From Chthonomonas calidirosea (GTDB taxonomy: Bacteria; Armatimonadota; Fimbriimonadia; Fimbriimonadales; Fimbriimonadaceae): a DNA stretch of 11,914 bases. Positions within the stretch are counted from its first letter, which is position 1; every line of letters begins with the position of its first letter. The position numbers are program-made. The stretch spans positions 1-11,914 of the forward strand of contig CAMAPH010000065.1 of the NCBI GenBank assembly GCA_945859975.1. Direction: 5' to 3'. Positions 1 through 6,000 of this stretch are shown here, piece by piece.

Positions 1-3000
1 TCTTTTCGGTTAGGGAAGAGTTCTGTCCCGACAGACACCGCCATGATGACTTCGGCAAGACAGCTGAGCGTTTCTGCCTTCACGATGCTCTTCGTCGTGG
101 TTGGGCTGTCGTTCCGTCCAAGCATGAACTGGCTGGTTCTCGACCAGGAATACGCCAAAACCGATGGCATGATCGGGAAGACCAGCAACGATGTCATCGC
201 CGCGCTGGGCGACCCAACCGAGGTCTACAACAAAAAGCGATTCTGGGAGCGAGACCGGTGGGGAAATTTCCGCGGCTGGGATCCCGATCCGAGCTACCCG
301 ATCGGCGAACGAGCGTTCTGCTACGTGATCGGAACAAAACGCATCGTCTTCTACTTCGCCCGCGATGTCGTAACCGCCGTCAAAACCTCTTACTCGTAAG
401 CCGGCCGAACCGTCAGAGCTCGAGCGACCAGGTTTCCTGAAGGGCGTCGTAAGAGATCGACTTCACGTGAAAGTCGCCGTAAAGCGTGTTGTACCGGAAC
501 CCTCGAATGTTGTCGAAGTAATCCCGCAAGCTGTCCGTCGGAGTGAGCGCGCGGGTCGAGCCGTGCCAATGCCCCGCACCGTCGAACATGACATTCACGT
601 CGGAAGGCAGCCGGAAATTCGTCTGGGTGAAGTACTTGAAGGCGATCTCCGTCCGGAAGAAGTAGCTCGAACCGTACACCTTCCACATGCTTGGGTCGGC
701 TCGAAATGGCGTGGGGAAGTGGTTCTCTAAAACCTGCGTCCCCGAGTCTCCCGGGCAGTGAAAAATGTCTTTGTTCTTCGCGTACGGCTGAACCACCTCG
801 TGGAGCAACGGCATCGTGTCGATCCGGTTTCGAAACTCCGGAAACTCTTCCCAAATCTCCGGCGCAAACTTATCGCTGGCATCCAGCGCATGAGGAAACT
901 GGTCCTCGTAATCCCCCATGTAAAGCGCAATCGAGGCCCCGATCTGCTTCAGATTGCTGATGCATGCCGACTTCTTAGCCTCCGCCTTCGCCCTCGCAAA
1001 AACTGGGAACAGGAACGCGGCGAGAATCGCGATGATCGCAATCACGACCAACAGTTCAATAAGCGTAAAGGCGCGCCGCATACCCTCTCAGTTTACGACG
1101 ACCACCGAGATTACGTGCCGAATATTTGGGTCAATCGCCGGAACCGTTTAAAGCTCGTAGGGTCGGCGTAGACTTTTGCCGCCTTCATAGTCCAAAATGA
1201 GTGGTTGCGCCCCAACCTGCATCCGGGGCCAGCGTGAGGAAGCAATTTGGCCAAGCAAGTCTCGTTTAAGCCCGAAGAAATTTCTGCCCGATCCTATGCG
1301 GATCGCCTGATTCTCGAGAAACTCACCGAGATGGAGGCCGCAATCAAGCTCAGCGAACTGGCCGAGAAGTTGGCGGACAGTGGCATCGGTTTGGCAACCG
1401 TTCGATCCCTCCTGGCTTCGAACCCAGATCGATTCGCCTACCATGAGCGACGCTGGATTCCGGCCGCCCGACTGATCACTCAGGGCCGACCGCTTGCCGA
1501 AATCATCGCCGTCACCCTCGATCGATTCGGCGCGCCAATGCCGTTCGACCTTCTCGTGACCGAGATCTCCCGGGTCCGAAAAGAAGAAATCGAAGTCATC
1601 GAACCCGTCGTGCTTCGACTCCTCGACCACGACTCCCGATTCGCCTTCACCCTCGAGCACGAAGTCGCCCTCACCTCGTGGAGCTTCGTCGCCATCGATG
1701 AAGAACGAGATCGCGGCCTCGCCCTCAACGGCCTCACTCCAGAAGAAGTCGAAATTATTGAAGCCCGACTTGGCAACTTCGACTGGCGCGCAGATGATGC
1801 GGTTGCCGTCGCCATCGAAAAGCTCGCCCCGGCGCGATTGAAAGCCATTGGTGCTGCCTGCTGGAAGCAACTCAACTCCGAAGATCCAAAGTCGGTTCTG
1901 CTCTTTGATTTCCGAAAGTTTGCCGCCGAAGCCTTCAGCGTTCCAGGCTTCATCTACTCGCCCGATGGCACGATCTACCCAGAAAAAGAAGCCACCAAGT
2001 GGATTTCTGGCGCGATCAAGTTGGCCGATAAGCTCGCCCCATCCGTTGAAGTCGATGACGTCGCCCCGATGGAGATCAAGCCCGAGGACATCAGCAAGAT
2101 GGTAGGCAAGATCGTTGGCGTCGACACCAGCACCACCGCCCTCAAGCTTCTCGAAGAGAACTACGAAATCACGCCAGGAACCAAGACCTTTGTCGATGAC
2201 CTTGCGAACATGATTGCCGCCCTTCAAGGTAGCCCCGATGTCGTGTGGGTCGGCGGAGACCGATTCCGAAAGCCCGGTTCCATGCCGGACTACATCGCCG
2301 AGGTTCCAGAGCCGTTCTACTTCGTATCGTCCGACATCATGGACGAAGAAGGCGAACTCATCGATGTCGAACTCACCGATGACGGCCTCAGCACTTCGCT
2401 CCGAAAGCTCCTCAGCCACCCGCTGGCCATGGACGTGCTGGACGAAGACATTTCGCCAACGCCAAAGGTCATGCCAGACAGCGTTCGCTTGGTCCTTAAG
2501 TCCATCCACCGAGAGCTCGGCACGTTCCCAATGTGCCAGTTGCCAACCGGATTCCTCGATGCCACTCCAAACGTTCAGGAGTTGGTCATGCAGGATGCCG
2601 ACGGCCGAGAACTCACGATCTGGGCCAACCACGAAGCCCGGTTGACCTACAACTGGATCGACTGGTGGTTCGAGCAGACCAACGAAAGCGGCGCCGTCTT
2701 CACCCTGACCAAGACCAACAAGCCGAACGTCTTCGACTTCGCTTGGATGGAACAGCCAGACCCCGTCGTCTACATCACCGTTCAGCGAATGGAAGAACTC
2801 CGAAACATCGGTGTCGCTTCCGAAGGCAAGAGCATGCTCGACGTTCTCGTCGAAGTCTTTGCCCACTGGCCAAAGGGCGCCGACTTCTTGACTCTCCTCG
2901 CCGAAGTCAACGTTGTCCGACGCAGCAGCCGACGCCTCATCGCATCGCTCCTCAGCAGCTACCAGTGCTTCTACCAGCGATCCGGAAGCCCGGTCTGGCA

Positions 3001-6000
3001 CTTCGACGCCAAGAAGATCGATCTCGGCTTCGACAAGACGAAGCGCAAGTTCGTTCGAAAGTAAAGAACGAATCCCATCACGGTGGAAGGTGCCACAAAT
3101 TAGGTACCTTCCAAGCGTGACGATCACCCTCTTCATCGCAACCAGCCTCGACGGATACATCGCGGGGCCGGACGACGATCTCTCGTGGTTGTTTACCGAC
3201 GCCGACTACGGGTTCTCCGAATTCTACGAAACCGTTGACGGCCTCATCATGGGCCGCGGCACCTACGACGTAGTCCGCAAAATGGGCAAGTGGCCATATC
3301 CTGGCAAGCCCACCTACGTTGTCTCCAAGAACACCGATTTCAGCGTAGATACGCCGGACACCAAAGCCGCGACTGGCGAACTCGAAGACCTTGAAGTCGA
3401 ACTCGTTGATCTCGGTCTAAAGAACGTTTGGCTCGTCGGCGGCGGAGAGCTTGTCCGCTCCTTCCTCGATCAGCAGCGCATCGACCGCATCGTGATCAGC
3501 CTGCACCCCGTGCTCCTCGGACGCGGCGTTGCCCTTTTCGCCGGCGGATTCCCCGGCATGCGACTCAAGCTCGAACACGCCGAAAGTTTCGATTCCGGTC
3601 TCGTCCAGCTCACTTATCTCACTGACTAACGCAGGTATCCTTCGAACGTTCACAACTCAATCCCGCTGTAAGGGAAGGACCATCCTATGCGCTACGAAGA
3701 AAGCAACCTCTATCGTCTCCGGCACTCCGCCGCCCACCTTCTGGCGCAAGCCGTCACCGAACTTTATCCCGGTGCGAAGCTCGCCATCGGACCACCCGTA
3801 GAGAACGGCTTCTACTACGACATCGACTTCCCAACCCCATTGCGCGAGGAAGATCTGCCGAAGCTCGAGCAGAAGATGAAAGAGCTGGCCAAGCTTGATC
3901 AGCGCATCGAGCGCACCGAAGTCAGTCGTGATGAAGCTCGTGCCTTGATCCTCGACGCCAGCATCCCCAGCATGGGCCCCGACGTCGCCGAGTACAAGCT
4001 CCAACTCCTCGATGCCATCCCCGAAGGCGAGACGATCAGCTTCTACAACCAGCAGCGAACCGACCGCGAAGGCGTCCTCCACCGCTTCCTGGACCTCTGC
4101 CGCGGACCGCACGTAGAGACAACGAAGGAAATCAAAGCCTTCAAGCTGATGTCCATCGCGGGTGCGTACTGGCGCGGCGACGTCAAAAACAAGCAGCTGA
4201 CGCGAATCTACGGCACGGCCTTCGAGACCAAAGAGGAACTCGAGCAGCACCTCTACATGCTCGAAGAGGCGAAAAAGCGAGACCACCGAATCCTCGGCAA
4301 GGAACTCGGCCTATTCATGTTCTCCCCTCGCGTTGGCACCGGTCTCCCGCTCTGGCTGCCCAAAGGCGCGACCTTGCGCCAGGTCATGATCGACTTCCTG
4401 CAAAAGGAGCAGGTGAAGCGCGGCTACGACCCCGTTGTGACGCCGCACATTGCCAGCATCAAGCTGTACGAAAAGTCCGGGCACATCATCAACTACCGCG
4501 ACAAGATGTTCCCGTTCATGGAGGACCACACGGAGGGTAGCGAAAAGGACACCTACATCCTAAAGCCGATGAACTGTCCGTTCCACATCGAAATCTACGC
4601 CTCCCAGATGCGCAGCTATCGAGACCTCCCGGTTCGGTACGCCGAGTTCGGAACCGTCCATCGTTACGAGCAAAGTGGGGAAGTCACCGGCATCCTCCGC
4701 GCTCGTGGCTTCACCCAAGACGACGCCCACCTCTTCGTCCGCCCCGACCAGCTGCTGGAAGAGTTCATTGGCGTGGTGGACCTCATGAAGACCGTTCTGA
4801 ACAAGCTCGGCCTCACCTCCTACCGCGCGCGACTCGGAACGAAGGATCCAAACGACTCGAAGTACGTCGGCCACGACGATAACTGGAAGCTCGCCACCGC
4901 CGCCATTGAAGAAGCGTGCCAAAAGATGGGCTTGGAGTACGAAGTCTCCCCCGGAGACGCCGCGTTCTATGGTCCAAAACTCGACCTCATCATCAAGGAC
5001 GCCCTCGGCCGAGACTGGCAGATGGGCACCGTCCAGGTGGACTACAACCTGCCTGAGCGATTCGAGCTGGAGTACATCGGCGAAGACAGCAAGCCCCATC
5101 GCCCGGTCATGATCCACCGCGCCCCGTTCGGCTCGCTAGAGCGAATGATCGGGCTCATCACCGAGCAATACGCCGGCGCCTTCCCGCTCTGGCTCGCCCC
5201 GGTCCAGATCAGCGTCCTCGCGATCGCCGACCGGCACAACGATGAGACTCTCGAAGTGGCAAACGAACTCCGTGAGACCATCTTCGACACGCGAAATCTT
5301 CGGGTGTCGATCGATGACCGCCGCGAAACCCTCGGCAAAAAGATCCGCGATGCCCAACTTGCCAAAGTCCCCTACATGCTGATCATCGGCGATAAGGACC
5401 TCGAAAACGGCACCGTCGGCGTCCGCTCCCGAGAAGAAGGCGACCTCGGCCCAATGACCCTAGAAGCGTTCCTGTCGCACATCAATAAGTAGAATCCGCA
5501 TATGCGGCTGAATCAAGAAGGGAGCCTGCCAACCAGGGTCCCTTCTTTACAGGGCGAAAGAAATTCCGTCTTTGCTGCTTACCCTGTCTTCAACTATCGG
5601 CGCTGACTTTGGTAGCGGGGACGATTTTGCTGACTCGCGAATACGCTTTATTCCAACTTGACGCGGGCCCATATTTGGCTGCCATGTACTTTCTAATCGC
5701 GGTTTCCTGGCTTGTCGCAGGTATGTTGCGACTTAAGGCGAAGAAAGTCTGTCCGATCCATTGAGCGCAGACCAAGAAGTTCGTTCCGCTTAGATTCCGG
5801 CCGCCAATCCAAACTGTGGGACAGGGAAGAAAACCTTGTCCGATGAGTACATTTGGCACGTTAGAGGCGTCTGAAGACCTAGAATAGACAGATGATCATC
5901 CCGCCCCACGCAAGATTACAGTTTGTAACCGTTGTGCCTAGCGATACAATCACCTATCCGGTGCCAGCTCGTGCAGTCCGTGTAGAAACAGGCGGAAACC

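Follow-up and report, generated by a model that had tools for sequence, protein, structure and literature searches.

A 605-residue protein of Armatimonadota joining delta-type winged helices to a B3 pseudobarrel

The locus and its transcript

The window, that is, the whole stretch of 11,914 nucleotides analyzed (Chthonomonas calidirosea, contig CAMAPH010000065.1, positions 1 to 11,914), contains the gene of a 605 amino acid protein (Table 1). Its start codon is TTG, located 6 nt after a Shine-Dalgarno-like motif; this start is backed by close relatives, which begin at the identical point, and by RNA contigs starting at 1214-1239, and no sigma-70-type promoter was found upstream of the gene. 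A single RNA contig covers positions 1239-3582 and reaches into the RibD_C/DHFR-like gene, which is probably co-transcribed with it.

Regarding its expression, the gene had a codon adaptation of 0.724, at the 99.3rd percentile of the 1972 genes that a crude gene call gave for the same genome and at the level of rpoB (98.1) and rpoC (98.6), in agreement with the initial annotation, which had described codon usage like that of highly expressed genes; in other genomes, the family gene exceeded its neighbors rimO and gltX in 16 of 23 comparisons. Codon adaptation is only a proxy for protein abundance, and the protein is probably abundant.

Table 1. Features of the locus and domains of the 605-residue protein, with positions in the window
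Feature	Position	Strand	Remarks
GAGGA, Shine-Dalgarno-like	1236..1240	+	read from the sequence
Gene for the 605-residue protein	1247..3064	+	
WH1, winged helix, aa 8-76	1268..1474	+	about neutral; VIA-align Z 6.1-6.9; HHalign to WH2 91.7%
WH2, delta/HARE-type winged helix, aa 80-148	1484..1690	+	profile match to delta; VIA-align Z 7.8-8.8
Helical insert and WH3, aa 150-262	1694..2032	+	acidic, least conserved; secondary structure; HHalign to WH2 70.8%
WH4, delta-type winged helix, aa 275-347	2069..2287	+	HHalign to WH2 92.4%
Acidic linker, aa 348-408	2288..2470	+	modelled as folded; family mean net charge -14
B3/DNA-binding pseudobarrel, aa 409-503	2471..2755	+	mildly acidic; VIA-align fold matches; conservation
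WH5 and basic tail, aa 504-605	2756..3061	+	net +6; most conserved part
RibD_C/DHFR-like gene	3117..3629	+	local neighbor, outside the conserved cluster
thrS	3687..5492	+	local context

Domain architecture

No Pfam or NCBIfam family was found over its cut-off, as initially claimed, and the best trace was TIGR04567 (E 0.13, residues 84-148), whose 12.4 bits lie below the curated cut-off of 42 bits. At E ≤ 0.1, TIGR04567 was matched by 18 of 55 family rows and HARE-HTH by 6 of 55, so that the reported recognition of part of the members by TIGR04567 holds. The structure model had a pLDDT of 91.9 (89 in the initial annotation) and a pTM of 0.59; Foldseek returned the same rows as before, namely plant B3 domains, EcoRII-N and delta 2krc, with weak E-values, none of them ≤0.001. 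The model supports the proposed chain of delta-like winged helices, B3 barrel and last winged helix, with a layout of five winged helices, the last one basic and conserved, a folded acidic linker and the B3 barrel. The protein has a mass of 68 kDa and is net acidic, as stated earlier, with a charge of -26 over residues 49-605. It is real and enzyme-free: no nuclease was detected with Pfam, NCBIfam or PADLOC, the latter giving two single-row chance matches in 55 rows, and the identified domains account for the whole chain.

As for the winged helices, WH1 matched Z-alpha, I73R and LOTUS-type domains in VIA-align. With WH2, the 55-row profile found B. subtilis delta (2krc) at E 1.3e-3, close to the 9e-4 claimed before, and residues 73-146 superposed on B. 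subtilis and S. aureus delta at the Z-scores of Table 1; by both measures, WH2 is a HARE-type winged-helix domain. WH4 marks the start of a core that is common to a family of Chloroflexota (see below), and together with WH2 it is the winged helix closest to RNA polymerase delta. Stand-alone delta (TIGR04567) over the cut-off occurred in none of 61 phylum genomes; three weak matches sit in frames of 649-669 amino acids, and both placeable ones (G044 and G037) map to WH4. The linker that follows is internal, about 60 residues long and modelled with a pLDDT over 90; its conserved positions are D/E, G380, L385 and P392. In WH5 and its tail, each of the positions R558, R559, R562, K590, K597, K599, R600 and K601 is occupied by K/R in at least 92% of the rows.

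The B3 barrel has conserved residues H421, G425, T426, W459, N461, L466, W473 and G482, and a net charge of -3.9 (family mean). Residues 411-506 matched the plant B3 domains of FUS3, VAL1, NGA1, TEM1 and ARF at Z 10.6-11.0 (rmsd 2.4-2.7, 92-95 aligned residues), and those of restriction enzymes at Z 6.3-9.3. On these scores, and on the Z 11.8 of the B3 fold found independently in the Chloroflexota model, the pseudobarrel extends over the whole domain; no Pfam B3 family reached E ≤ 0.1 in either of the two sets of 55 and 45 rows. K/R occupies positions 414, 418, 422 and 465 in 52-74% of the rows, and these positions, like the conserved H421, T426 and N461, may correspond to the DNA-contacting N-arm and C-arm of B3 domains.

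Distribution and the related Chloroflexota family

The gene was matched in 190 of 201 Armatimonadota genomes by a single-protein query, and a profile search of 41 genomes gave one match per genome in 39 of 40 positives, in accordance with the single copy reported. As reported before, 1.84 billion representatives yielded 177 clusters at E ≤ 0.001; this count understates the superfamily because the core is common to the Chloroflexota family. Within the phylum, the nested family f20 had no match in 5/5 genomes, even by profile; the gene was cleanly lost there and is dispensable in this family, and one relative encodes a protein cut to WH1-4. The protein is therefore not an essential subunit. The designation as a signature gene of the phylum stands as to the wide occurrence, but it is too narrow because f20 lacks the gene and Chloroflexota have the core as well.

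The usual gene order across the phylum is ftsK-rimO-[605-residue family gene]-gltX. Of 113 distinct loci, 91 have gltX or rimO (within 400 nt in 86) and 33 have ftsK upstream, which bears out the rimO/gltX neighborhood and the housekeeping context described initially; trxA is a further conserved neighbor, and no nuclease or methylase partner is conserved. The pair ftsK-rimO persists where the family gene is lost. With the queries used, no match occurred among phages, plasmids or viral contigs. A full-length outlier of 860 amino acids (P0243) also carries the core, and close relatives of it were found neither in the protein collection nor in genome or metagenome scans. One locus among 80 genome loci bears the title Bacillota, but it draws the same phylum sample that the window does and is thus no evidence of a Bacillota member. 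In the ESM Atlas, the matches listed for the whole protein included only unnamed Armatimonadota clusters, and residues 345-605 gave nothing among named clusters. As before, no description of the protein was found in the literature; supplementary proteomics or marker-gene tables, which lie outside this scope, could list one.

The family is not restricted to the phylum: its core, from WH4 through the linker and B3 to WH5, is homologous to an unnamed family of about 525 amino acids from Chloroflexota (Anaerolineae), with HHalign giving 99.7% over 332 aligned columns and 95.5% for WH5 against its equivalent. In the Chloroflexota model, the equivalent of WH4 matched S. aureus delta at Z 8.0 and that of WH5 an MCM winged helix at Z 7.8. 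No description of this family was found in the literature either. It differs in its N-terminal half, which includes a beta-rich domain with no Pfam match (other domains took up the fold lists), in a long hairpin after the B3 barrel, in the lack of a basic tail, and in a conserved Cys/His partner gene of about 147 amino acids that adjoins it in 65 of 74 loci. The same core is thus kept in two lineages with different gene neighborhoods. All six non-anchor matches of the WH1 profile were Anaerolineae partner genes; a fusion of this partner into WH1-3 was considered and rejected, given HHalign values of just 8.8% (WH1) and 44.5% (WH2), which reflect a generic winged-helix likeness.

Possible functions

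The folds, internal repeats, conservation pattern, single copy, position in a housekeeping operon, strong codon adaptation and core homology with the Chloroflexota family are directly supported. A general transcription or chromatin factor is possible because the DNA-binding folds match plant factors and a polymerase accessory subunit; binding of DNA or RNA polymerase is predicted from these folds and from conservation. Our tentative preference, held at somewhat less than even confidence, is a general transcription factor: B3/WH5 would grip DNA, the delta-type winged helices would contact RNA polymerase, and the polymerase would be tethered or recycled on the chromosome genome-wide. In favor of it, among solved structures delta comes nearest to WH2, both in sequence and in fold, and to WH4; WH4 is directly followed by an acidic stretch in the order known from delta, a winged helix and then an acidic region (PMC7749165); the B3 domains of plant factors and of restriction enzymes are DNA-binding (PMC5766183); the codon adaptation equals that of rpoB and rpoC; and the B3 fold and core recur in Chloroflexota amid different neighbors. 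Against it, delta-type winged helices are not polymerase-specific, with Forkhead, Z-alpha, SelB and LOTUS just 1-2 Z lower; the folded linker is unlike the disordered -47 tail of delta; the barrel and residues 49-605 are net acidic; the gene is not adjacent to rpo genes; and it is lost in f20 and truncated in one relative. A complex prediction for residues 78-410 with the beta' shelf-jaw (30 paired rows each) gave 0.00 in both runs and was uninformative, its controls being unfolded. Replacement of omega by the protein was discarded, omega being present in 36/36 genomes.

The main rival is a nucleoid protein that bridges DNA through its several domains, independently of polymerase, and whose presence freed most of the phylum from the need for HU; we regard it as possible, though on balance unlikely. 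HU (PF00216) was found in 76 of 201 Armatimonadota genomes; all 19 from the source genome's family, closed ones included, gave no match, and neither did the source genome with a profile built from nine HU proteins of the phylum. Of the 125 genomes lacking HU, 124 retain the 605-residue family gene, and HU occurs in 10 of the 11 genomes that gave no match to this gene; high codon adaptation, a scan of 20 small, highly adapted ORFs that turned up no known nucleoid-protein family, and the absence of DUF1931 histone (0/5) agree with such a role. However, typical nucleoid proteins are unlike a 68 kDa, net acidic protein, 66 of the 76 HU-positive genomes keep the gene too, and YbaB/EbfC is present (5/5). 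Moreover, the HU link comes from a single clade that accounts for one or two losses; with this clade set aside, Fisher p = 0.055, and related genomes are not independent data points. E. coli remains viable when its nine main nucleoid proteins are missing (bioRxiv 10.64898/2026.08.21.744486). The initial class of candidate chromatin or transcription factor is still the best one, and HU loss may add some support on the chromatin side.

A scaffold that binds RNA or is tied to translation, with ribosomes, tRNA or mRNA leaders as its targets, would have analogues in the SelB winged-helix array and in LOTUS or Z-alpha domains (Z 6.1-6.6), and translation genes do adjoin, rimO and gltX phylum-wide and thrS in the source genome; such a role is quite unlikely, as these matches score under delta and B3, the neighbors differ in the Chloroflexota relatives, and solved B3 domains bind double-stranded DNA (PMC5766183). 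The frequent sequence specificity of B3 domains, described in the same source, would also suit a factor for chromosome maintenance (at the replication origin, at the terminus or in segregation) reading a repeated site, as would the single copy and the upstream ftsK. The latter adjoins rimO in a cluster common in bacteria, which persists where the gene is lost, and the very high codon adaptation fits an abundant protein better than a binder of few sites, making this role very unlikely. Bacterial B3 domains known from restriction enzymes, and a HARE-HTH family name that includes restriction endonucleases, recall a restriction or defence system, of which the protein might be a leftover without activity or the recognition subunit; for a vertical, single-copy, near-universal gene in a housekeeping operon, with chance PADLOC matches, no conserved nuclease or methylase partner and no match in mobile elements with the queries used, this is highly improbable.

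Compared with known systems, delta (RpoE of Bacillota; HARE-HTH PF05066, TIGR04567) has the same type of winged helix, with a terminal W/Y-G-L-x-x-W strand, followed by an acidic segment, and the 605-residue gene shares codon usage at the polymerase level; delta, however, has 173 residues, one winged helix and a long disordered acidic C-terminal region, whereas the protein has five winged helices, a B3 barrel and a basic C-terminus, falls below the family cut-off, and its beta' binding is putative. The B3 domains of FUS3, VAL1, LEC2, NGA1, TEM1, RAV1, ARF and VRN1 share the pseudobarrel (92-95 residues, Z 10-11.8) and rank first among the structural matches of the two bacterial families, with 9-17% identity and no link at the sequence level; the bacterial barrel is acidic, lies among winged helices and is vertically inherited. 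EcoRII-N, BfiI-C, NgoAVII, UbaLAI-N and LlaJI.R1 have the same fold, but the protein lacks a nuclease domain and occupies a housekeeping locus. HU and IHF have no sequence or fold similarity to this large, net acidic protein; the likeness would lie in function alone, that of a probably abundant protein which occurs almost throughout the phylum and is retained in genomes lacking HU.

In a wider reading, unlikely when its parts are taken jointly, the long form would be an ancient general transcription/chromatin factor of Armatimonadota and Chloroflexota, with some anaerobic Bacillota probably having it too; Bacilli delta would be a cut-down descendant of WH4 and the acidic linker; the B3 barrel would be vertically inherited, nuclease-free and closer in structure to plant B3 domains than those of restriction enzymes are; and the Armatimonadota version would have taken over enough of chromosome organization to allow HU loss in most lineages.

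In conclusion, the family touches three published views, that delta is specific to Firmicutes (PMC11156646), that bacterial B3 domains are parts of restriction enzymes (PMC5766183) and that HU is omnipresent in bacteria (PMC5683647): delta-type domains occur in two other phyla, a bacterial B3 barrel belongs to a housekeeping protein, and the scarcity of HU alongside the retained family gene is a new observation. Because cultured species exist in both phyla, a role as partner of the polymerase can be told apart by experiment from one as the missing chromatin protein, and the question of where delta and plant B3 domains came from becomes testable as well.

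Domain architecture and expression of the B3-WH gene

The gene under study (see the table) encodes the B3-WH protein, a series of five winged helices (WH1 to WH5) with an acidic linker and a B3 barrel between WH4 and WH5. As the initial annotation stated, it has no Pfam or NCBIfam family over the cut-off, the sole lead being TIGR04567, the RNA polymerase delta family, at E 0.13; among 8000 scored candidates, 626 relatives were found at E ≤ 0.001, and those that are named are all labelled 'hypothetical protein'. Regarding transcription, metatranscriptome contigs over the gene, from four lake runs selected for containing this stretch, begin at 1214-1239 with 90-99% identity and no indels, and a single contig covers 1239-3582; since DNA can occur in such libraries, they hint weakly at transcription.

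The codon adaptation of the gene was 0.724 (99.3rd percentile of 1972 crudely called genes, against a five-gene reference with rpoB and rpoC not among them), and in the same genome rpoB and rpoC reached percentiles 98.1 and 98.6, in agreement with the usage like highly expressed genes first proposed; of 23 comparisons with rimO or gltX in other genomes, one of them doubtful, the gene ranked higher in 16.

The structural model (pLDDT 91.9, pTM 0.59) is confident for each domain and not for their overall packing. Comparison of profiles revealed internal repeats, with WH1/WH2 at 91.7%, WH2/WH4 at 92.4%, WH2/WH3 at 70.8% and WH4/WH5 at 47.3%. Foldseek gave no row at E ≤ 0.001; by VIA-align, residues 411-506 matched plant B3 domains (Z 10.6-11.0, rmsd 2.4-2.7, 92-95 residues) and restriction-enzyme B3 domains (Z 6.3-9.3), and residues 73-146 matched delta (Z 7.8-8.8). 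A1, the 55-row family profile, found B. subtilis delta at E 1.3e-3; TIGR04567 matched 18 of the 55 rows at E ≤ 0.1 (best 1.7e-7), and its weak matches in whole genomes sit on WH4. The B3 barrel and delta-like winged helix claimed earlier are supported, as is the absence of a nuclease, no catalytic domain being detected in the protein. The family mean charge is +1 in WH1, -0.5 in WH2, -7 in WH3, -6 in WH4, -14 in the linker, -4 in B3 and +6 in WH5 plus tail; conservation is highest in WH5, where eight positions are K/R in at least 92% of rows.

Features of the window and of related loci
Feature	Location	Strand	Remarks
B3-WH gene	window 1247-3064	+	605 aa; TTG start, GAGGA six bases before
Prepilin-type N-methylation gene	window 413-1081	-	divergent from B3-WH gene
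634-aa low-GC gene	window 5892-7796	+	GC dip after thrS
DUF5695 protein	window 9933-11912	-	at window end
367-aa form	L314:5488-6588	-	WH1-4 only; between rimO and gltX
Split B3-WH gene	G133:C1:1919666-1921476	-	two frames; single-contig genome
Second WH1-WH2 hit	G222:C430:3403-3867	+	E 1.6e-5
Second WH1-WH2 hit	G206:C167:18760-19185	+	E 8.4e-4
Cys/His protein	L219:4110-4550	-	~147 aa; winged-helix end
rpoC	L277:984-5693	-	own rpoC of source genome
Post-gltX genes, examples	L118:8831-9565; L144:9028-9687		

Occurrence, neighbourhood and loss

A single-protein query matched in 190 of 201 Armatimonadota genomes (172 of 181 among those of good quality), and A1 in 40 of 41, 39 of them with one hit, as expected of a single-copy gene; the representative search again returned 177 clusters. 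In two genomes a weak second hit falls in a different frame (427 and 486 aa), which may encode another HARE-type protein, and the gene split in G133 reflects a frameshift or a sequencing error.

A profile recheck of 10 of the 11 matchless genomes recovered one, G013 of family f14, with the 367-aa form; the linker, B3 and WH5 were found nowhere in its genome. The phylum-wide occurrence first reported stands with one qualification: in family f20 the gene was not found in any of five genomes. These retain rimO and gltX, which are separated by 70 to about 990 bases that contain no remnant of the gene, and in a quick beta' tree (52 rows) f20 falls in one clade (100% support) with the gene-bearing families f14 and f24; the missing remnant and this nesting mark a loss of the gene in f20.

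As for the neighbourhood, the earlier placement beside rimO and gltX is borne out: of 113 distinct loci, 79 contain gltX and 71 contain rimO; at least one of the two is there in 91 loci, and within 400 nt in 86, while ftsK is found in 33. A pattern scan supplied 80 of the 120 loci examined, a bias toward some families; in 40 loci picked across families, either gene occurs in 29, within 400 nt in 27. In the window, the gene is relocated beside a RibD-like gene and thrS. After gltX, 45 of the 113 loci carry a pair of ~245-aa genes and 8 carry a ~217-aa gene, none with an NCBIfam hit at 1e-5. The N-terminus of the 634-aa protein carries a phage/GTA 'spike base' domain (NF048002, over cut-off), and the region is likely an acquired island.

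The family is not a phylum orphan, contrary to its presumed confinement to Armatimonadota. When metagenome contigs were scanned for the consensus motif of B3, at least 120 stretches came up; in 74 of the 80 listed, the motif is in frame in one ~525-aa family (44-103 bits against A1), and the five named relatives among 120 matches listed for one member are all Chloroflexota, Anaerolineae or Anaerolineales. Compared by HHalign with the alignment of this family, A1 gives 99.7% (E 4e-25); the 332 aligned columns start where WH3 ends and reach WH5. The B3 share of the score is partly circular because the loci were chosen by motif; WH5 alone gives 95.5% (E 1.5e-8). An independent model of a Chloroflexota member (pLDDT 92.7, pTM 0.81) again matched B3, at Z 11.8, S. 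aureus delta with its WH4 equivalent at Z 8.0 and a winged helix with its WH5 equivalent at Z 7.8. In 65 of 74 loci the Chloroflexota homolog has the conserved Cys/His gene next to it. The 860-aa protein P0243, of low-GC-type composition, aligns across all B3-WH domains, and its extra C-terminal region ends in a long coiled coil and a hydrophobic tail. A species-genome pattern scan based on five aligned rows retained 80 of 88 loci, titled as Armatimonadota groups, 'bacterium' and one 'Bacillota', which belongs to the same phylum sample.

Possible roles and the HU pattern

The B3-WH protein shares folds with the delta subunit, plant B3 factors and restriction enzymes, but lacks the defining features of each. 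Stand-alone delta was found in none of 61 phylum genomes, the controls B. subtilis and L. lactis being positive; WH4 followed by the acidic linker is a delta-like layout, with the linker short and modelled as folded. The beta' shelf-jaw is 562-590 aa in the order of the source genome and about 470 aa, ~100 aa shorter, in several other families.

In the favoured, tentative reading, the protein would act as an adaptor from DNA to protein: the B3 barrel together with WH5 and the tail would hold DNA, the delta-type winged helices would contact RNA polymerase, and the acidic linker would serve as mimic or mask, each binding step being one that we infer from fold and conservation. The main rival, a chromatin role independent of the polymerase, appears rather unlikely and may overlap with the adaptor. 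The HU pattern touches on chromatin: this nucleoid protein (HU/IHF, PF00216), termed omnipresent in one account (PMC5683647), was found in 76 of 201 Armatimonadota genomes (9 of 14 controls) and not in 125, whole families and closed genomes among them; in the source genome, a profile of nine phylum HU proteins did not find it either. The B3-WH gene is retained in 124 of these 125, the lone exception having 800 contigs and 9% contamination, and of the 11 genomes in which the gene gave no match, 10 have HU (naive Fisher p 3e-4, or 0.055 without seven f20/f14 genomes, related genomes not being independent). In a preprint, E. coli is described as still viable after losing nine nucleoid proteins (bioRxiv 10.64898/2026.08.21.744486). 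A role in RNA or translation is improbable, site-specific chromosome maintenance slightly more so, and defence very improbable.

The literature searched, with most subscription papers and all supplements outside its scope, yielded no description of this protein, which is real and, within those bounds, undescribed. What is new is its tested homology with the Chloroflexota family, together with the HU pattern and the finding that one clade has cleanly lost the gene; the function is directly testable, and the HU pattern raises the question of what organises the chromosomes of HU-less Armatimonadota.
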